Assembly (NCBI GenBank): GCA_016839515.1
Contig: JAEOUE010000066.1
Location: forward strand, 1 to 13,389
Direction: 5' to 3'
Source: Candidatus Hodarchaeum mangrovi
GTDB lineage: Archaea; Asgardarchaeota; Heimdallarchaeia; Hodarchaeales; Hodarchaeaceae
Length of the DNA stretch: 13,389 bases
Shown here: positions 1 through 13,389 of the stretch, piece after piece
Layout of the letters: every line of letters starts with the position of its first letter
Position numbering within the stretch: position 1 is the first letter of the stretch
Notes under the pieces: generated by a model
What the model saw: the letters and a program-made list of their open reading frames with translations, nothing else
Database searches by the model: none
What the model was told of the DNA's origin: nothing
Translations under genes and position numbers: made by a program

Positions 1-1010
1 ATCATTGCTTTAGAAAGTGTTGATCGTAAATAATCCATTTGTAATCGAACACCTTCAATACCTCCCCCAACGGCAGCTCGTACAATATCTCGTCCAATTA
101 AGGCAGCATGAGCTCCAAGGGCAAGGAGTTTTAAAACATCATAACCTGTACGGATCCCTCCATCTACAAAAATCATGACTTTTTCATCTTCAACTGCTTT
201 GACTATATGAGGCAAAACTTCGGCAGTTCCAGGCGTGTGGTCTAGCACTCTTCCTCCATGATTGGAAACGACAATAGCTGCAGCTCCCGCGTTAACAGCT
301 AAAACAGCATCTTCTGAACTCATAATCCCCTTGATAATGACTGGAAGTGAAGTCGCCTTAACTAATTCTTCAATATCAGCTTCGCTTTTACGAAAAACTG
401 GTTTATTATGCTTATTCATCATATAGGAACCACATCCGTCAGTATCTACTCCAACAGCAGCTGCACCAATTGTTTCAGCCCGTTTAAAAAATTTAATAAT
501 CTCTTCTTGAGAACGGGGTTTAACAATTTTGACTCCCCAACCACCTGCAGATTCTATGGCATTTAATCCATAGCTGCTATTTGTATAATGATAGGTGTAT
601 GTATCACCACGCCATCCTAGAGTACCTGCTGCTTTACATCCATGCACAGTCGCATGACAGAAATCAGCTTCTGTAATTACTTTATCCCCACCGAAAGAAT
701 TAACTCCAGTAACACTGGCCCCCATAATAGGCATCTTTAACTTTTTACCAAAAAAATTAAATGTGGTTTCAGGTTCAAAATGATTTGAAACTAAATTCAT
801 GTTTAATTTAATTTTTCGTAAGGCAAGCCAGTTATTATGAAAGGATGCACCTGAACCGATTCCACCGAATCCTAATGGACGTCCATAGTGTTGTCCTTGA
901 CAAAAACGACCGGGGTCTCCATCACAGTCTTTATAGACCATACAAACCCCCTTTAGTTTTTCTTTTGCGTTTTGACGAACATCTTCGAGTGATAAGACGC
1001 TTGAATTCAT
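1..1010 (-). CDS. FMN-dependent alpha-hydroxy-acid dehydrogenase/oxidase (LldD/glycolate oxidase family), 3' end truncated by the window edge
   Basis: Translated by hand from ATG at 1010 (AGGA upstream): MNSSVLSLEDVRQNAKEKLKGVCMVYKDCDG...LPVIIKGIMS...IVVSNHGGRVLD...IFVDGGIRTGYDVLKLLALGAHAALIGR..., open for 336 codons to the edge. SNHGGR, DGGIR, KG and GR are the family FMN/catalytic motifs. Confidence 0.93.
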   Translation of the reverse strand, partial: MNSSVLSLEDVRQNAKEKLKGVCMVYKDCDGDPGRFCQGQHYGRPLGFGGIGSGASFHNNWLALRKIKLNMNLVSNHFEPETTFNFFGKKLKMPIMGASVTGVNSFGGDKVITEADFCHATVHGCKAAGTLGWRGDTYTYHYTNSSYGLNAIESAGGWGVKIVKPRSQEEIIKFFKRAETIGAAAVGVDTDGCGSYMMNKHNKPVFRKSEADIEELVKATSLPVIIKGIMSSEDAVLAVNAGAAAIVVSNHGGRVLDHTPGTAEVLPHIVKAVEDEKVMIFVDGGIRTGYDVLKLLALGAHAALIGRDIVRAAVGGGIEGVRLQMDYLRSTLSKAM

Positions 1011-1036
1011 ATTAATTCCTTCAAATTGGGGGATAA

Positions 1037-1897
1037 TTACCTGAATTTACTTATTAATTTAATCAAAACTTCTTTATTCAATTCACGTTGAAATAAAGGG
1101 CGAGAATCTTTTGAATAGATACGAGTGTTTTGTTCATAAGTTGGTTTAGGATTGATATAAAAGGTTCCTAAAGGTAATTTTTTCTTCTCTAGGGCTTTTT
1201 CTAAAGCCATTTTTTGGTCATATGGATCATGAGTCTCATCTAGGTAGTAAGTATTCTCTCTGAACCATTGATACGTATTCAGTCGATTGAAACTGACACA
1301 TGGGGAGAAAAGATCTATTAGCGCATACCCTTTATGGTTTAATGCCTTTTTAATTATTTCTTTTGTCTCTTCAGGGTGGCCGACAAAAGCTCGGGAGACA
1401 AAAGAGGCATTTTGGGCAATAGCGATAGCAATAGGGTTTAATGGCTCATTATATACTCCTACTCTCTGTACGCTGGTTATGAATCCGATATCGCTGGTTG
1501 GAGAGGCCTGTCCTTTTGTTAAACCATACACACCATTATTATGAACAATATTTACAATATCTGGGTTATATCGAATAGTATGAAGAAAATGATTACCACC
1601 CTCGCTATAAGTACAACCATCACCTGAGATTGCAATAACGTGTAAATGAGGATTTGCTGCTTTTATCGCAGTCGCATTTGATAAATATCTTCCATGTAAG
1701 CCATTCAAGATATTTCCATTTATAAAATGACAAAACTTCCCAGCCTGTCCTATTCCCGTAACAAAAACTGTATCTTGAGGGTGAATATTTAAGTCGATCA
1801 GAGATTCTTTTAAACTACGAAGAGCACCAAAATTACCACATCCTGGGCACCAGTGTGGATCGTTTTTACTATCCCATTCTGTTCCTTTTTTTGACAT
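1037..1897 (-). CDS. korB: 2-oxoacid:ferredoxin oxidoreductase beta (TPP-binding) subunit, KorB/OorB family
   Basis: WCPGCG, LHGR, GDG...GGNH...[18 protein letters not shown]-binding region and SPCVSFN. Start directly abuts the alpha-subunit stop. Substrate specificity cannot be determined, so the symbol is family-level. Confidence 0.93.
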
Positions 1898-3631
1898 TTA
1901 ATCACCTCTAATTATCACTAGTACCTTTTCTAACAATTCTTCTACTGAAAAAGGATAACCACTATATTTTAATATTTTATGGGGTATTTCATGACCAAAT
2001 TCAACTTTTATTAAATTTGCAAACTGACCTGTTGCATTATTTTCAATAATTATTATTTTGTCAGCTTTCTTCAAGTAATAAAGAGTGCTTCTTGGTAACG
2101 GAAATACTTGTAAAAAATGTAGAAAGGCGACAGAATACTCTTCCTCGCGTAATTCAGCAAGTACTTCTTCAATGATGTGATAATTACTTCCCCAGCCAAT
2201 CATTAAAATATTGTAATCGGAAGGGCCAATAAATTTAGGGGGAAAAGCGTCATGTTTTATCATTTCTAACTTTTTCATCATTTTTTCAACAGATTTGTTA
2301 CGAATTGAAGCGTCTTCTGTAATATAACCATCTTCAGTGTGAGTGTGAGAGTCTACTCGAATCATTCCCTTTCCATATCCTGGTATTCCTCTTGGAGAAA
2401 TTCCATTATCTGTAAATTCATATCTTTGATAACCCTCTGCAGTTTCTACGAAATAGTTTGGTATTGTTAGATTTAAAATGCTAAGATCCGATATATTATA
2501 TGCTGAATTTACAATATAATGATCTGATAAAATTATTACAGGTACTTGGAACTTATCAGCTAAATTAAATGCTTCTTGTGTTAAAATGAAAGCTTCCTCT
2601 ATTGATCCAGGAGCTAATAGGATTCTTGGAAAATCTCCATGTCCAGCATGTAATGCAAGCTGCAAATCACCTTGCTCCGTTCGGGTAGGCATTCCAGTGG
2701 CTGGTCCTGGTCTTTGTCCTAAATTTATAACCATCGGACTCTCTGTTACTCCAATTAATGAAATAGTCTCAGTCATCAAGGCAAATCCTCCTCCAGAAGT
2801 AGTTACAAATCCACGAGCCCCTGCATACCATGCACCATAACATTTATTTATTGCTGAAATCTCATCTTCGCTTTGATCGACAATAATTCCAAAATCTTCC
2901 CCATACTGAGCAATAAAAGACGCTATCCCGGTACTTGGGGCCATAGGATAAAAGCACACATAACTACAACCTCCTGCTATTGCCCCTAAGGCTATTGCGT
3001 CTCTACCTGAAAGGATTAAGTCTGAACTAATATTTGGATCACGAGAAATATTGAGATTTAAATTCAGAGGTTTTTTAGTTAAAACTTCTTCGATAATATC
3101 AGCTCCTTTATTTGCTGCCTCTAAATTCTTTTGAACAATCTCGATTCCTTTTTGATGGAACTGTTCTGTTAGAATATCATCAATAAGCTTTCTTTCAGTC
3201 TTAAAGAGAGTAGCTAACACTCCGATAGCCACACTGTTTGAATAGATACGGTTTCCAATTATTTCTGCTATCTTCGTAAAATCAATCTCTAGAAAAGTAC
3301 AACCATTAAATGGATGCTGCCCAATTAAACTTTCATCTCCAATTATGCAGGTATTTTGGGTTATACGGGATTTAACATGACCTACAGCTTCTTTTGTTAA
3401 TGGAATCAAAATATCAATTCGATCGCAGTATGCACGAACAGGCTGTGATGAAACTCGTATAGTTGTAGAATTTGTTCCTCCTCTTACTCGTGACATGAAT
3501 TCTGAGGTGGAAAAGACATATAATCCAGATTTTTTCAAAATTTTGGTAAGAAGTTCCTCTACAGTTGCTATACCTTGCCCCGCTGCTCCACATAATACAA
3601 TAGATATATCATTCTTTGAATCGTGTTGCAT
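1898..3631 (-). CDS. korA: 2-oxoacid:ferredoxin oxidoreductase alpha subunit with fused N-terminal gamma domain, KorA/OorA family
   Basis: GAAGQG and SRVRGG (gamma domain), YPMAPS, EDEISA, TSGGGFALM, QRPGPATGMPTRTEQGDL, GWGS, IENNATGQ. ATG at 3631 follows AAAGGA and is preferred to the ORF-track start at 3646. Confidence 0.93.
   Translation of the reverse strand: MQHDSKNDISIVLCGAAGQGIATVEELLTKILKKSGLYVFSTSEFMSRVRGGTNSTTIRVSSQPVRAYCDRIDILIPLTKEAVGHVKSRITQNTCIIGDESLIGQHPFNGCTFLEIDFTKIAEIIGNRIYSNSVAIGVLATLFKTERKLIDDILTEQFHQKGIEIVQKNLEAANKGADIIEEVLTKKPLNLNLNISRDPNISSDLILSGRDAIALGAIAGGCSYVCFYPMAPSTGIASFIAQYGEDFGIIVDQSEDEISAINKCYGAWYAGARGFVTTSGGGFALMTETISLIGVTESPMVINLGQRPGPATGMPTRTEQGDLQLALHAGHGDFPRILLAPGSIEEAFILTQEAFNLADKFQVPVIILSDHYIVNSAYNISDLSILNLTIPNYFVETAEGYQRYEFTDNGISPRGIPGYGKGMIRVDSHTHTEDGYITEDASIRNKSVEKMMKKLEMIKHDAFPPKFIGPSDYNILMIGWGSNYHIIEEVLAELREEEYSVAFLHFLQVFPLPRSTLYYLKKADKIIIIENNATGQFANLIKVEFGHEIPHKILKYSGYPFSVEELLEKVLVIIRGD
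1899..1908 (-). promoter_or_regulatory. Shine-Dalgarno (GAGGTGA) for the beta subunit, inside the alpha-subunit 3' end; likely translational coupling
   Basis: Minus strand reads AGAGGTGAT-TAA-ATG, with stop and start adjacent. Confidence 0.7.
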
Positions 3632-3690
3632 TATCCTTTTCCACAATAAAATTAATGATTTTTGTTATTCTTCAACTTAAAGAAGAGATT

Positions 3691-3710
3691 AGATAAATAG
3701 CTTTTTATCT
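3691..3710. promoter_or_regulatory. 20-bp near-perfect palindrome upstream of the oxidoreductase operon; candidate operator
   Basis: AGATAAATAGCTTTTTATCT, 9 of 10 pairs symmetric, 60-80 bp upstream of ATG 3631. Confidence 0.45.
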
Positions 3711-3889
3711 CTTCAGGTAAAATTTTCAGAAATAAATCACAATTCGGGTAAGATAAAATAAATTAAGCATATTTTCCCTTAATTTTAATAATTTATTTAA
3801 AAAAATTATTACACTAGAGTAAAATATCAGATGAACTTATAAACAGCATAAATAATTGATTATCTCTATAAAGATTATTTTTTTTTAAA

Positions 3890-5710
3890 TTAATGTTTAG
3901 AGATAATCCCATCTTCCATCAAGATTTGTCTTTGGGCATAAGCTGCAATATCTTGTTCATGAGTGATTATTACGATAGTAGTTTTGGTGTGTTCATGAAA
4001 ATTCTTTAACAATTCCATCACTTGAGTTCCTGTAACAGAATCTAAATCACCTGTTGGTTCATCAGCAAAAATAATGGATGGCTGATTAGTTAATGCGCGT
4101 GCAATTGCAACTCGTTGCATCTGACCTCCACTTAATTGAGCAGGAAATTGACCTGCTTGTTGATCAATCCCAACACCACGGAGAAGACCCTCTATCCTTT
4201 TCTTTAACTCAGTATTTAATCTTCCTGCCAAGTCTGCTGGAAGTGCAATATTTTCTTTAGTGTTAAAATGGGGAAGCAGCGCATAGCTTTGAAAAATAAA
4301 TCCGAAATGCTTCAATCTAACTTCGGATTTTTCAGAATCTTTCATTTTATGTAAATCTTTACCTCGGAAATACACTTTTCCATGATCAGGAGAATCTAAA
4401 CTGGCCATGCAGTTTAAAAGGGTCGTTTTACCAGCCCCTGAACTTCCTACGATTGCAACAAATTCTCCTTCTTTAATATCGAGATTAACACCCCGAAGTG
4501 CATACACAGTATTGCGTCCTAGGTTATAATTTTTAAAAAGACCTCTAACAGCCAAGATTACGTCTTTATCAATGTTAACTGGTCCTTCATCACCCTGATC
4601 AATCAATTGTACATTAAAACTAAAGAAGGGTATATCAGAACCAAAAAAATCAGACCACATTTTTAGTGATTCAGCTTCAACAAAAAGATCAATACTTATT
4701 CTACTAATAGACTTAAGGTGAGTAATAAATTCACGTGTTGATTCTGCTATCTTTACTCCATTAACAGTTTCATCAAGATAATCTCTGAAGCATTTCTGGC
4801 ATCGCTGAATTAACTCACTAAGTTCATGGAGCTGAGTTTTTCCTTCGTTAATTTGATCTGAAATTGTAGCAATTGTTGTATTAATATCTTGAAAGTCACT
4901 CTTTAGATTGTATTGTGTTATAATCATTTTAGGGATTTCAAAAAGATTGAATATTCTATAGATTTGATTATCTACTTCCTCTAATGCAGAGAGTTTAGCA
5001 ACCAAAATCCGCAAAAAAAGTTCAAATTTTTCCTGTAACCTTTCATCTGAGCTTCGATAATGTGTTTTCTTAATCTCATCTTCCAATCTTACTAAAACTG
5101 ATTTCATGTTAATAAATCGTTGAAGTGAAGGTGTTAAAAAATTCATAAAGAAATTAATGATCAATAATTTATCAACAAGACTATCAATCTTCATATTTTT
5201 CTGTGTATATCCAGTGAAAAATGGAAAATCGAATCCTGAGAGAAAAAAGCGGTACTCTTGAATTTCCTCCATATCCCAGACTGTAATAAAGCTTTTACTA
5301 CTAATATTTCTAAACTCTTTTGGTAATTCAATATGCAGCTTCTCAAGATTCGACCCTAATCTTTTACCCAACCTTGGCTCAATTTCTTGAACAAAATTCT
5401 TTATTATTTGAGAAGTTTCATGAAGCTCTTGATTTTTTTTCAAGTACCTTTGAAAACGAGATTCATTTTTTTTGTAATAATCATTAAAAATGCGTTTTAA
5501 TTTTCCTTTTTCCACTTTCTCTACAATATCAGGATTAAAATGGCTATTTCTTGTTCCTGAAACAAATAGAAAAGTATTCAGTTCCTGAGTACTTATCTGG
5601 GAACTTTTTGCTGAAATCGCATTCTTTAACTCTGAGCTAATTTTATTTCCCAATTCTCTGTTTAATCGTCGCGAGGGTTTATTAATCAAAGCAGCTGTAT
5701 AAACTTTCAT
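3890..5710 (-). CDS. ABC ATPase (LolD/FtsE/MacB-type NBD, aa ~383-606) fused to a ~380-aa soluble N-terminal domain of unknown function
   Basis: Walker A GSSGAGKTT, Q-loop GFIFQ, signature LSGGQMQR, Walker B IIFADEPT, H-loop ITHE. GGAGG RBS before ATG 5710, 2 nt after the upstream stop. Confidence 0.92.
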   Translation of the reverse strand: MKVYTAALINKPSRRLNRELGNKISSELKNAISAKSSQISTQELNTFLFVSGTRNSHFNPDIVEKVEKGKLKRIFNDYYKKNESRFQRYLKKNQELHETSQIIKNFVQEIEPRLGKRLGSNLEKLHIELPKEFRNISSKSFITVWDMEEIQEYRFFLSGFDFPFFTGYTQKNMKIDSLVDKLLIINFFMNFLTPSLQRFINMKSVLVRLEDEIKKTHYRSSDERLQEKFELFLRILVAKLSALEEVDNQIYRIFNLFEIPKMIITQYNLKSDFQDINTTIATISDQINEGKTQLHELSELIQRCQKCFRDYLDETVNGVKIAESTREFITHLKSISRISIDLFVEAESLKMWSDFFGSDIPFFSFNVQLIDQGDEGPVNIDKDVILAVRGLFKNYNLGRNTVYALRGVNLDIKEGEFVAIVGSSGAGKTTLLNCMASLDSPDHGKVYFRGKDLHKMKDSEKSEVRLKHFGFIFQSYALLPHFNTKENIALPADLAGRLNTELKKRIEGLLRGVGIDQQAGQFPAQLSGGQMQRVAIARALTNQPSIIFADEPTGDLDSVTGTQVMELLKNFHEHTKTTIVIITHEQDIAAYAQRQILMEDGIISKH

Positions 5711-5712
5711 TT

Positions 5713-6474
5713 TTAATCCTCCATGAATGGGCCATTTTCAACATGAGAGATTTTTCCATCTACCATGTGGATTATATAATCACATTTCTCCGCAATCCAT
5801 CGATTATGAGTGACTAAGATGAATGTTTGTTGGTTCATTTGATTGATTCGTCTAAATAATTTCATAACTTCAGCACTTGTTGAACTATCTAGGTCCCCTG
5901 TAGGCTCATCTCCTAGAATAATAGCAGGATTATTAATTAAGGCTCGTGCAATGGCAACTCTTTGCTGTTGACCGCCAGAAAGCTCCAATGGATAATGATA
6001 TAGTCGATCGCCCATACCTAAATCCCGGAGTAACATTTTAGCTTGTTCTCTAGCTACTCCTGAAGGGATATCCTTTAATAATAAAGGGGTCTCTACATTT
6101 TCAACAGCAGTTAAAAATGGGAATAAATTAAATAGCTGGAAAATGAAACCAATATTATCTCTTCTGAAAGCAGTCATTTCAGAATCTGAAAGCTTGTTTG
6201 TGTCCAGATAATCGATTATGATCTCTCCTCCAGAGTTGTAATCAAGGTGTCCGATCATATTTAAGAGTGTTGTCTTTCCACATCCAGATGGCCCCATAAT
6301 TGCCATCATATCCCCTTTTTTAACGTCTAAATCTATCCCACGAAGTGCGTGTACTTCATTTGACTTTCCTTCATTGTATCGTTTATGCAATCTTCGAATC
6401 TTGAGAATTGTCTCGGAATCGTCAATCAGACGAAAACGTATACCCTCTAGTTCTATTATCTCACCATATGACAT
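5713..6474 (-). CDS. ABC transporter ATP-binding protein, LolD/MacB (MJ0796-like) family
   Basis: [58 protein letters not shown] upstream. Confidence 0.95.
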
Positions 6475-10954: not shown

Positions 10955-10982
10955 CTGTCTTTGGAAGAGTATTGGAAATCAA

Positions 10983-11022
10983 AATATATGTACTGCAAAT
11001 ATTAAGTGCCTATAAAAGGCAC
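10983..11022 (-). promoter_or_regulatory. Putative promoter/operator of the padR operon: TATA-like box within an inverted repeat, plus a downstream imperfect palindrome
   Basis: GTGCCT-ATAAA-AGGCAC (11006-11022) contains TTTTATA on the minus strand. AATATATGTACTGCAAATATT (10983-11003) has 8 of 10 symmetric pairs. Confidence 0.5.
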
Positions 11023-11503
11023 ATCTTATCGGAATAGTAGAATCTGAATGTTAATTTAACAGTATAAAAAATGAAAAAATAACAACGTTTGGTTTAAAAT
11101 ATTCGAAAATCACTGCTTAAAGTTAAAAATACAATATTTCTTAACTTCAAAATGAAATTCCAGTTAATTTTGAGAAATGATGGGTCTTAAAATAGGCAAA
11201 CAGTTGATAACACATATTTTCTTTCACTATACTGTATGAAGAATTTCTGAAGAAAAAATATCAATGTATGTGTATTAATCTCTTGAAATATCAGACTTCC
11301 TTTAGGAACTATCATTAGTTTATCTTTTTTAACCCTGTTCTCCTTGATAAATAATCTAAGCCTATTTACATTTGGATTAATACTTATTTTAAGCTATAAC
11401 ATGACTTTAGGACATAATCTTAATCTGAAATAAAAAATAATAATAAGAATTGCGAATACGTTTAAAAGGATTTAATCCAACAATATTTTGAGGTAGTTGA
11501 TTA

Positions 11504-12589
11504 ATGGTAAAAGTAGTCATAATGAAAAAAAATGGAAAAATTGAATTGCAGGAACACCCTTACCCGAGTTTAGAATCAGGAGCTGCGCTTGTAAAAACTG
11601 CTTATTCTGAAGTTTGTGGAACAGATGTACATCTTCAGAAAGGGCATTTAGCTGATGTTCCCTATCCAATCATTCCAGGACATGTCTCTACTGGAACCAT
11701 AGAAGAGTTGAATGGTGATATTTATGATATTGAGGGCAAAGTACTCCAAGAAGGGGATCCAATTACATTCTTAGATGTTCATGAGACCTGTAATAATTGC
11801 TGGTACTGTCTTGTCGCAAAGACAAGTACCCGTTGTCCTAAAAGAAAAGTATACGGAATAACTTATTCATCAAAAGAAGGACTCTTAGGAGGTTGGTCTG
11901 AATATATTTATCTTAAACCAGGTGTCAAGATAATTAAGCTTCCATATAATGAATTCATGAAAACATTTATAGCTGCTGGGTGTGGATTACCCACTGCCAT
12001 TCATGCAATTCAGCGATCTGAAATCAAACTAGGGGATACAGTTGTTATTCAAGGATCAGGACCGGTTGGTTTAATGGCTGGATTATTAGCAAAATTGAGT
12101 GGAGCGTTTCATGTTATTATGATTGGAGGTCCTGGACATCGGTTGAAGATTGCTGATTATTTTGGGATTGATACAACAATTAACATAATGGATTTTGATC
12201 CAGAAGCTCGAGTCAAACAGGTATTTGAACATACGTATAATCGGGGTGCTGATATAACTATTGAAGCAACGGGTGTACCTACAGCAGTTAAAGAAGGATT
12301 AGAAATGACTAGGGACGGGGGAACATATACCATTGTTGGACAATATACAAATGCGGGAGATGTGACAATCAATCCGCATTTAGACATTAATAAGAAACAT
12401 TTAACAATAAAAGGTTCTTGGGGTAGTGATTTTAGCCATTTCTATTTAGCGGTTGATTTAATTAAACGATATTCTACAACATATCCTTTTAAAAACACTA
12501 TTAGTCGTGAGTATTCATTAGAAGAAGCTGCAACAGCCTTAGATGATGTTGAGCATCTAAGAGTTATGAAAGCCATTATAAAACCGTAA
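11504..12589 (+). CDS. Zinc-dependent medium-chain dehydrogenase/reductase (alcohol dehydrogenase, TM0436-like)
   Basis: Catalytic-Zn CGTD...GH...GCG, structural-Zn CNNCWYC-x8-C, Rossmann GSGPVG. GAGGT RBS at 11490-11494. Confidence 0.93.
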   Translation: MVKVVIMKKNGKIELQEHPYPSLESGAALVKTAYSEVCGTDVHLQKGHLADVPYPIIPGHVSTGTIEELNGDIYDIEGKVLQEGDPITFLDVHETCNNCWYCLVAKTSTRCPKRKVYGITYSSKEGLLGGWSEYIYLKPGVKIIKLPYNEFMKTFIAAGCGLPTAIHAIQRSEIKLGDTVVIQGSGPVGLMAGLLAKLSGAFHVIMIGGPGHRLKIADYFGIDTTINIMDFDPEARVKQVFEHTYNRGADITIEATGVPTAVKEGLEMTRDGGTYTIVGQYTNAGDVTINPHLDINKKHLTIKGSWGSDFSHFYLAVDLIKRYSTTYPFKNTISREYSLEEAATALDDVEHLRVMKAIIKP

Positions 12590-12631
12590 AGAAATGGAGA
12601 TAATTATATTAAACTTGAAGGTTACAAAGAT

Positions 12632-13389
12632 TTGAAGATCGCTCTCATTCAAGTTCCCTTTCACTTGGGAAAGGAAGATATTGGTATGGGAAAGGGACCC
12701 ATCAGATTTCTAAACGCAGGAATCGATCAGAATTTGAAAGATCAAGGCTATCAAGTAAAGGTTGAAAGAATACGACTTTCAAAACAATATAAGCGTGAAT
12801 TAGAAACCATTGCTAGTTTAAATAATACATTGGGAAATGTTGTTAAAAAAGTATTAAAAGAAGGTTTTTTTCCTTTTATTCTAGGAGGAAATTGTAATAC
12901 ATGTCTAGGTACATTAGCAGGATTTGATAAACCAAAACCAGGTATAATCTGGTTAGATGCTCATGGAGATTTCAATACTCCAGAAACATCCCCAAGTGGG
13001 TTTCTTGACGGTATGGGGTTAGCCATTGCAACTGGTCAGTGTTTTCATGATATAAATGCTATAATTGAGAATATGCATCCGATTCAAGAGTCTTGTATAT
13101 TGCACATTGGAGCACGTGATTTGGATCCCGAAGAACGTAAGCTTCTAGATAGTACCGAGGTTCTTGTTGTTGAAAATAATATATTGAAGAAGAGAGGAAT
13201 ACGAAATGGTCTTCTACCAAAGTTAACAGAACTTAAGTCACAAACTCAACAAGTTTATCTCCATATAGATATAGATGTGTTTGATCCTTCAGTAGCTCCT
13301 GGTGTTGACTTTCCTACACCTGAAGGGCTTTTTCTACATGAAATGGAGGAAGCTATTAAGATAATTGGTGATAATATTCAGATTAAAGC
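12632..13389 (+). CDS. Arginase-like ureohydrolase family protein, 3' end truncated by the window edge
   Basis: Translated by hand from TTG 12632 (GAAGGT upstream): MKIALIQVPFHLGKEDIGMGKGP...ILGGNCN...IIWLDAHGDFNTPETSPSGFLDGM...IGARDLDPEE...YLHIDIDVFDPSVAPGVDFPTPEGL. Exact start uncertain. Confidence 0.9.
   Translation, partial: MKIALIQVPFHLGKEDIGMGKGPIRFLNAGIDQNLKDQGYQVKVERIRLSKQYKRELETIASLNNTLGNVVKKVLKEGFFPFILGGNCNTCLGTLAGFDKPKPGIIWLDAHGDFNTPETSPSGFLDGMGLAIATGQCFHDINAIIENMHPIQESCILHIGARDLDPEERKLLDSTEVLVVENNILKKRGIRNGLLPKLTELKSQTQQVYLHIDIDVFDPSVAPGVDFPTPEGLFLHEMEEAIKIIGDNIQIK

Follow-up and report, generated by a model that had tools for sequence, protein, structure and literature searches.

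A conserved N-terminal domain of no matched family on one of two ATPases in a PadR-linked, FtsX-type ABC operon of Asgard archaea and Bathyarchaeia

A 13,389-nucleotide stretch of contig JAEOUE010000066.1 from Candidatus Hodarchaeum mangrovi (the window, i.e. the whole stretch of DNA analysed) contains an operon of ATP-binding cassette (ABC) type in which one of two ATPase subunits, here called N-NBD2, carries a long extension, the N-domain, in front of its nucleotide-binding domain (NBD2). Judged from its predicted structure and its conservation, the N-domain proper (residues 1-366) is a real cytoplasmic domain that folds on its own and represents a family not described before. Its fusion to the NBD is genuine and widespread and is not an assembly artefact, since one open reading frame (ORF) encodes both parts at 79 of the 80 loci taken from other species. 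The function proposed here, to which we give roughly an even chance, is a regulatory or adaptor one, with the N-domain as a lineage-specific cytoplasmic module of an archaeal type VII ABC machine.

Results

The N-domain is predicted to fold as a separate soluble body

Positions 4565-5710 of the window are exactly codons 1-382 of the minus-strand N-NBD2 gene. The N-domain was modelled with AlphaFold2 from a 37-row alignment, and the model, with a predicted local distance difference test score (pLDDT) of 91 and a predicted template-modelling score (pTM) of 0.87, is laid out as a small six-stranded sheet (residues 2-8, 39-44, 47-53, 142-147, 152-157 and 164-168) and a bundle of long helices (70-138, 175-213, 223-267, 276-309 and 325-357). 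The long amphipathic stretches that had been noticed in this region in the initial annotation fit the individual predicted helices, which are 17-39 residues long and are packed within the monomer model. The same N-domain elements return in the model of full-length N-NBD2 (pLDDT 86, pTM 0.70). They are followed by a variable linker, residues 367-382, where the pLDDT is below 50 at residues 371-382 of the N-domain model and at residues 371-375 of the full-length model. The mean identity to the window copy is 26% in this linker, against 50% in the N-domain (1-366) and 77% in the NBD.

In an alignment of 35 sequences (A3), 44 columns of the N-domain are invariant and many of them hold charged or aromatic residues, as is expected of a conserved interaction surface. 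Four invariant clusters are given in Table 1, and the one at the C-terminal end of the domain includes a conserved aromatic motif (W352-D354-F356-D359-P361-F363). The start of the domain, with an M-K-V-Y N-terminus, is conserved as well, and the median isoelectric point is 8.7. The initial annotation had taken the region for a soluble one. In agreement with this, no transmembrane (TM) segment was found in the whole of N-NBD2, the highest Kyte-Doolittle mean over 19 residues being 1.32 for a threshold of 1.6.

Searches for relatives of the N-domain

No Pfam family was detected at E<=0.01 in residues 1-382 of the window protein, and no consistent one at E<=1 in 35 orthologues, the commonest being present in 6 of the 35 with a best E of 0.0021, below its cut-off. 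The NCBIfam search of the N-domain orthologues returned only unrelated sub-threshold rows that differ from one orthologue to another, and the PADLOC scan of the orthologues gave no match. With phmmer, no PDB sequence was matched by the N-domain. De novo designed four-helix bundles, which appeared in a profile search against the PDB (E 8e-5), were dismissed as helix-composition matches. When the N-domain model was compared with solved and predicted structures, Foldseek gave no match at E<=0.001 in the PDB (best E 0.17) or in BFVD, and the best ESM Atlas scores (0.76-0.77) lay inside the chance range. The type IV exporters PCAT1, HlyB and TAP were rejected as relatives of the N-domain, as their Foldseek probability is only 0.08-0.12. 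An IS200-type TnpA was a further weak fold row, over ~85 columns, and is not significant. No match was found by tblastn against plasmids and phages, and a literature search at title and abstract level returned no paper that deals with the N-domain or with an accessory domain in archaeal type VII systems. The region had been called unexplained in the initial annotation, and it has kept that status: the Pfam, NCBIfam, PADLOC, PDB and Foldseek searches of residues 1-382 revealed no known NBD accessory domain.

The non-designed PDB fold row of highest probability (0.89-0.91) was Campylobacter CorA, over ~200 columns. This row would be compatible with a ligand or ion sensor, in which the sheet and the long helices would act in a CorA-like manner and pass a small-molecule or cation signal to NBD2. 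However, the match is not significant (E 0.29-0.42, TM score of 0.23-0.25 on the query and 0.33-0.37 on the target, root-mean-square deviation of 12-13 Å), no ligand-binding family was matched in the Pfam and NCBIfam searches of the orthologues, and no conserved Cys/His cluster was found in the N-domain alignment, in which C304 and H217 are the only conserved residues of these two kinds. We regard a sensor of this type as improbable.

The fusion recurs in Asgard archaea and Bathyarchaeia

A word-indexed search with residues 1-382 retrieved 279 proteins at E<=1e-3, of which 120 were listed. PF00005 is present in 118 of the 120 listed homologues, and 101 of them are 600-649 residues long; the two that lack an NBD are a 429-residue ORF on a contig of 1583 nt and an entry marked 'partial'. 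When 1.84 billion representatives were searched exhaustively with phmmer, 41 clusters were obtained. Six of them, of 605-904 residues, cover nearly the whole N-domain (query start <=26, end >=364), and the other 35, which do not exceed 469 residues and align with less of the query (residues 1-337 at the most), are taken to be fragments.

For the analysis of gene order, one genome per species was scanned, 97 relatives were found and 80 loci were kept. Among the 79 loci with the N-domain and the NBD in one ORF, the NBD is complete in 75. The five loci without a complete fusion are one at a contig end (L024), one masked with N (L059), one with an apparent frameshift (L077), one in which the two parts are unfused (L061) and one with an incomplete NBD (L029). 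The initial annotation had raised the possibility of a fusion unique to one assembly, and this recurrence disposes of it. According to the submitters' labels, 60 of the 80 loci are from Bathyarchaeota, one is from Thermoproteota, 17 are from Asgard archaea (Hod-, Heimdall-, Prometh-, Hermod- and Thorarchaeota) and two are unlabelled.

A quick maximum-likelihood tree was computed from the window and 69 loci, after 11 loci shorter than 590 residues or with masked residues had been dropped; it is unrooted and was drawn with a midpoint root. All 16 Asgard rows form one clade with the window (Shimodaira-Hasegawa-like approximate likelihood ratio test, SH-aLRT, 100), within which the submitters' phylum labels are intermixed, and with one of the two large Bathyarchaeia clades it forms a further group (SH-aLRT 100). 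The tree is compatible with a single operon transfer between Asgard archaea and Bathyarchaeia and gives no direction for it.

These data also bear on the idea that the N-domain results from misjoined genes or is the degenerate membrane domain of a former half-transporter with a transmembrane domain (TMD) in front of its NBD. A TMD followed by an NBD is a frequent arrangement in ABC exporters, and the Foldseek rows for PCAT1, HlyB and TAP, although very weak, could be counted in favor of such an origin. Against it, the single ORF is found in other assemblies, the start is conserved with residues 2-8 forming a β-strand, and the domain has a sheet and no hydrophobic segment. Moreover, the HlyB alignment of the full-length model (TM score on the query 0.31-0.32, versus 0.35 for NBD-only matches) adds nothing beyond the NBD. 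An artefact or a relic of this sort can be considered effectively refuted.

Both ATPases keep their catalytic motifs

In NBD2, Pfam ABC_tran covers residues 405-553 (E 1.6e-34) and the NCBIfam models of LolD, MacB and YbbA align from residues 383-385 to residues 603-604, which places the start of the domain at D383 (DVILAVRGLFKNY), as had been estimated in the initial annotation. The Walker A motif GSSGAGKT (K428), the Q-loop (Q474), the LSGGQ signature (526-530), Walker B with the catalytic Glu (D550-E551) and the H-loop (H584) are invariant in an alignment of 36 sequences (A2). All five catalytic motifs of an ABC ATPase (PF00005) of the LolD/MacB/FtsE subfamily are thus present, and the earlier description of an intact LolD/MacB-type NBD was correct. 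The minimum identity to the window copy is 48%. NBD2 scores below the NCBIfam equivalog cut-offs (LolD 220.8 versus 307.75, MacB 204.6 versus 966, FtsE 191.3 versus 264.85), and by its sequence it is assigned to the same subfamily as LolD, MacB and FtsE and is an orthologue of no named member.

The Foldseek comparison gave MJ0796, MacB, YbbA, BceA and LolD with a TM score on the target (TMt) of 0.81-0.92 and 39-43% identity over ~224 columns. The best structural matches (3tif, 1l2t, 1f3o, 5lj9, 9rle and 6z63) have E-values of ~1e-18 to 1e-16 and TMt of 0.86-0.92, and TMt is 0.86-0.89 for MJ0796 and the MacB NBD. When the full-length model was used against the PDB, only NBDs were matched, over ~218-226 columns, no alignment extended into the N-domain and no solved ABC protein with a counterpart of the N-domain was found.

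The gene immediately upstream of N-NBD2 encodes a plain ABC ATPase, NBD1, which is presumed to be the heterodimer partner of NBD2. Thirty Asgard and Bathyarchaeia orthologues of NBD1 (A4) share 71-84% identity with the window copy, and their catalytic motifs are all invariant; NBD1 is clearly more conserved than NBD2 or the N-domain. The N-terminal extension of NBD1 (~20 residues) was considered as a conserved docking strand and rejected, as it is not conserved. Since both NBDs keep their catalytic motifs, the N-domain should not be a substitute for a dead ATP site, and the two halves of the complex, both competent by motif, would differ mainly by the N-domain. With a plain NBD1 and a duplicated permease directly upstream, the N-domain would distinguish one member of a heterodimeric pair of ATPases.

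The ATPase pair is linked to a duplicated FtsX-type permease

The middle of the AT-rich window (G+C 35%) is occupied by five co-directional and closely packed minus-strand genes in the order PadR, RDD, FtsX permease, NBD1 and N-NBD2. As the initial annotation had stated, N-NBD2 is in one open frame preceded by a GGAGG ribosome-binding site. This element sits within the last codons of NBD1, whose TAA stop (5713-5715) is 2 nt from the start of N-NBD2, and with this overlap and spacing the two genes look translationally coupled.

NBD1 is found immediately upstream of N-NBD2 in 75 of the 80 loci, the remaining five being four contig starts and L059. The permease is present upstream in 70 loci, and eight of the other ten are too near a contig start to show it. 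From its hydropathy, the permease is predicted to have 12 TM segments in a 4+4+4 arrangement and two large extracytoplasmic regions (~41-320 and 646-1015), i.e. ~280 and ~370 residues of non-TM sequence after TM1 and TM9. These outside regions are without a family match other than a MacB_PCD match of 22 bits for a 27-bit cut-off, and the protein scores far below the cut-off of the NCBIfam ADOP duplicated permease. The architecture of a type VII (MacB-fold) system is nevertheless recognizable, with an FtsX-type unit of four TM segments, a large outside domain between TM1 and TM2 and an adjacent NBD gene.

Two N-NBD copies were observed in one Bathyarchaeota genome (L044 and L059, both on CP070765.1), and both loci contain N-masked runs. 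When the neighborhoods were clustered, gene families outside the operon each occurred in at most 13 of the 80 loci, and no conserved cytoskeletal or division gene was seen.

PadR linkage and size variants

Upstream sequence exceeds 1300 nt in 58 loci, and 54 of them have a PadR-like ORF on the same strand ahead of the permease. In 45 loci, of the Bathyarchaeia type, PadR has ~180 residues (Pfam PadR 1.5e-13) and is separated from the permease gene by a median of 22 nt. In the nine loci of the Asgard type, PadR has ~117 residues and is followed by the RDD gene. The latter was found in 10 loci, all Asgard, and is missing from the Bathyarchaeia loci. In the RDD protein, strong conservation is seen over the N-terminal, cytoplasmic ~80 residues (DPIDGY...LLPYPE..K.PVL.EL..DV.DA...RPPSVVFGSP.EVAKN). 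HAAS (PF22564) was detected below threshold (22.4 versus 27 bits) in 2 of the 11 Asgard RDD orthologues and not in the window copy, so that PadR and the RDD protein may be an archaeal case of a HAAS-PadR dyad, joined here to an RDD domain.

Among the 120 listed homologues, 11 have 904-941 residues. The Asgard forms of this size (P0030, P0031 and P0042; loci L012-L014, L016 and L017) have ~320 extra C-terminal residues, and in the three that were read a coiled-coil-like stretch is added at the C-terminus. Both of the ends that were scanned gave sub-threshold TrmB, HTH_24 and MarR matches (at best 21.3 bits for a cut-off of 25.6), and these forms likely end in a winged helix. The C-terminal coiled coil and the putative winged helix-turn-helix (wHTH) would, in one lineage at least, connect the N-NBD2 subunit with regulation.

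Two other kinds of size variant were observed. In P0052 (663 residues, Odinarchaeota) and P0020 (737 residues, MGnify), the last helical hairpin of the N-domain is duplicated and the helix GK..L.EV..K...CQ..LRDYLDE occurs twice; the near-exact repeat in P0020 could be an assembly artefact. Some Bathyarchaeia forms (716-727 residues) have C-terminal extensions, one of them with hydrophobic stretches.

The linkage to PadR and the long variants suggest a specific version of the regulatory or adaptor role, a signal relay, in which the N-domain would follow the ATPase cycle and bind or release PadR, or act through RDD in Asgard archaea, in the manner of flux sensing by BceAB-BceS, so that transcription would track the load of the transporter. 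Apart from the frequency of the upstream PadR gene and the forms with a coiled coil and a likely wHTH, the N-terminus of the Asgard RDD protein with its sub-threshold HAAS matches is compatible with a relay, and HAAS-PadR dyads, including HAAS fusions to FtsX/MacB-PCD, are described in PMC11237479. On the other hand, plain repression explains a PadR gene beside an efflux-type ABC operon equally well, the Bathyarchaeia loci are devoid of RDD and the window RDD protein shows no HAAS match. Such a relay is conceivable and, on balance, rather unlikely.

A different role, that of a scaffold or oligomerisation module, would have the N-domain join transporters to each other or anchor the machine to division or cytoskeletal proteins, as in the bacterial FtsE-FtsZ/FtsA interaction. 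The long helices, the conserved polar and aromatic surface of the domain and the analogy with FtsEX argue for it. However, only one of the NBDs carries an N-domain, which gives one copy per complex and disfavors a symmetric dimer inside the complex; no cytoskeletal or division gene is conserved nearby, as the other gene families do not exceed 13 of the 80 loci; and control by PadR suggests a stress-inducible rather than a housekeeping function. Oligomerisation in particular is favored by no result. The scaffold role as a whole is distinctly unlikely in our opinion.

Features of the window

The flanking genes (3-3646 on the minus strand and 11504-13387 on the plus strand) look metabolic and unrelated to the operon (Table 1). 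A non-coding gap of 549 nt (10955-11503) separates the PadR operon from the divergent dehydrogenase gene and is likely the region of the promoter and the PadR operator. A second non-coding gap, of 243 nt (3647-3889), lies downstream of the N-NBD2 gene. The closest database match of N-NBD2 (P0001) is 99% identical, is named "ABC transporter ATP-binding protein" by NCBI and is from Candidatus Hodarchaeum mangrovi.

Table 1. Coordinates of the features in the window and of the invariant clusters in the N-domain.
Feature	Position	Strand	Basis or remark
N-NBD2 gene	3890..5710	minus	single ORF, ATG start, 606 residues, last gene of the operon
N-terminal accessory domain proper, residues 1-366	4613..5710	minus	AlphaFold2 model and conservation
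Variable linker, residues 367-382	4565..4612	minus	low pLDDT and low identity
NBD2, complete LolD/MacB-type ABC ATPase, residues 383-606 and stop	3890..4564	minus	Pfam ABC_tran
Invariant cluster ELxETSxIV..F	residues 95-106 of the N-domain		A3
Invariant cluster D..(5)..NFF..F..PT	residues 180-195 of the N-domain		A3
Invariant cluster K...F.RIL.AKLS.L	residues 228-243 of the N-domain		A3
Invariant cluster L.F.E.E..K.W.D.F..D.P.F.F	residues 341-365, C-terminal end of the N-domain		A3
Shine-Dalgarno-like GGAGG	5718..5722 (plus-strand cctcc)	minus	7 nt 5' of the N-NBD2 ATG
NBD1, plain LolD/MacB-type ABC ATPase, 253 residues	5713..6474	minus	Pfam and NCBIfam
Duplicated FtsX-type permease, 1137 residues	6490..9903	minus	Pfam FtsX, two stretches, E 2e-28
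RDD-family membrane protein, 228 residues	9913..10599	minus	Pfam RDD, E 4.6e-15
PadR-family wHTH regulator, 115 residues	10607..10954	minus	Pfam PadR, E 5.8e-10; first gene of the operon
FMN-dependent dehydrogenase	3-1010	minus	flanking gene
2-oxoacid:ferredoxin oxidoreductase beta subunit	1037-1897	minus	flanking gene
2-oxoacid:ferredoxin oxidoreductase alpha/gamma subunit	1898-3646	minus	flanking gene
Zn-dependent alcohol dehydrogenase	11504-12589	plus	flanking gene
Arginase-family protein	12632-13387	plus	flanking gene

Discussion

The proposal of a regulatory or adaptor module is drawn from a separate fold on a tether and from a conserved polar and aromatic surface. By homology, the pseudo-dimeric 12-TM FtsX permease, NBD1 and N-NBD2 would form one type VII machine of the MacB/LolCDE/FtsEX/YbbAP kind, in which, as in the bacterial type VII systems, the ATP-driven closure of the NBDs would move the extracytoplasmic domains. 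The N-domain would be a separate folded body held by a flexible tether of ~16 residues at the N-terminus of one NBD only, and would thereby introduce an asymmetry into the ATPase pair. Docking on the NBD heterodimer or on a partner in the cytoplasm, it would gate the ATP-driven mechanotransmission, and it may also report the state of the transporter. The initial annotation had suggested a module that couples the transporter to a cytoplasmic signal or partner, and a regulatory or scaffold coupling of this kind fits the flexible tether, the PadR-linked operon and the variants with coiled coil and wHTH. A link of the N-domain to transcriptional control is plausible in view of the constant link to PadR and of the variants that bear a likely wHTH.

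Several points weigh against this proposal. The fold and family searches were negative and give no functional handle on the N-domain. Judged from the pTM of 0.70 for the full-length protein and 0.87 for the N-domain alone, the mutual orientation of N-domain and NBD does not seem to be confidently fixed in the full-length model, and the domain would have no confident docking on its own NBD. Mechanotransmission is known for bacterial systems only, and we infer it for the N-domain system by analogy with these; the regulatory or adaptor role and the binding target are likewise inferred. Finally, the ATPase pair is not always adjacent to a permease: in L044 (5852-7228) a subtilase (Peptidase_S8, E 3.6e-53) replaces the permease upstream of NBD1, and L059 (7863-9539) is an orphan copy near thiolase-like genes, without an adjoining NBD1 or permease.

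Among the known systems, YbbAP(-TesA) and BceAB resemble the window operon in their LolD/MacB-type NBD (YbbA and BceA chains, TMt 0.81-0.92, 39-40% identity) and in a permease whose two FtsX units and two large outside domains are parts of a single polypeptide. According to the preprint 10.1101/2025.05.16.654284, YbbP is pseudosymmetric, with linking helices between its duplicated halves, and the Escherichia coli protein has 10 TM helices (4+2+4) and binds a YbbA homodimer. Compared with YbbAP as described there, the window permease has 12 TM segments (4+4+4, from hydropathy only) and thus four linking helices where YbbP has two, and the window system has two different NBD genes, one with the 366-residue N-domain, where YbbAP has two copies of YbbA. 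Unlike YbbAP, the window system is archaeal and linked to PadR, and no TesA-like outside partner was identified. The same preprint presents mechanotransmission as established for bacterial MacB, LolCDE, FtsEX and YbbAP, and calls type VII ABC systems 'unique to bacteria'.

The NBDs of MJ0796 (Methanocaldococcus jannaschii), LolD, FtsE and MacB, which have the best structural likeness to residues 383-606, are without an N-terminal extension, in line with the short length of their alignments. Regulatory domains are found on other ABC ATPases, such as the C-terminal domains of MalK, MetN and ModC, the CBS domains of OpuA and the FHA domains of Rv1747. The N-domain is like them in being a soluble cytoplasmic extra domain on an ATPase subunit; it differs in being N-terminal, in being present on only one of the two NBDs and in having no similarity to any Pfam or PDB domain. 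HAAS-PadR dyads are alike in having, after a PadR gene and near an FtsX/MacB permease, one for a membrane protein whose N-terminus is short, helical and conserved, and HAAS fused to FtsX-like TM domains with MacB/PCD domains is reported in PMC11237479. In the window, however, the membrane protein is of the RDD family with HAAS only sub-threshold in some of its orthologues, the Bathyarchaeia loci have PadR alone, and the N-domain is not HAAS.

The regulatory reading has a more far-reaching form, in which the N-domain would be the cytoplasmic signalling hub of a transporter-based sensing system peculiar to Asgard archaea and Bathyarchaeia. The 12-TM machine would work on the cell surface, and the N-domain would read out the state of its asymmetric ATPase pair and convey it to PadR, via RDD in Asgard archaea or via the fused wHTH in the 904-941-residue forms. 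We put this forward as a speculation that is unlikely to hold; if true, signals from the envelope would reach transcription by a non-two-component route, in the closest relatives that eukaryotes have among prokaryotes. Conversely, if the N-domain is a passive appendage, the finding is a routine gain in annotation.

Type VII ABC machines (MacB, LolCDE, FtsEX, BceAB and YbbAP) have been treated as a bacterial speciality, and the window gives a conserved archaeal version with unusual traits, namely two different ATPases, a fused permease with 12 predicted TM segments and a confidently modelled 366-residue cytoplasmic domain of no known family. Its hosts are abundant sediment archaea, among them the nearest relatives of eukaryotes, whose surface biology is almost unexplored. 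The N-domain lends itself well to a new Pfam entry and to structural studies, and it may show how an ABC motor is regulated asymmetrically or coupled to a PadR-type regulator.

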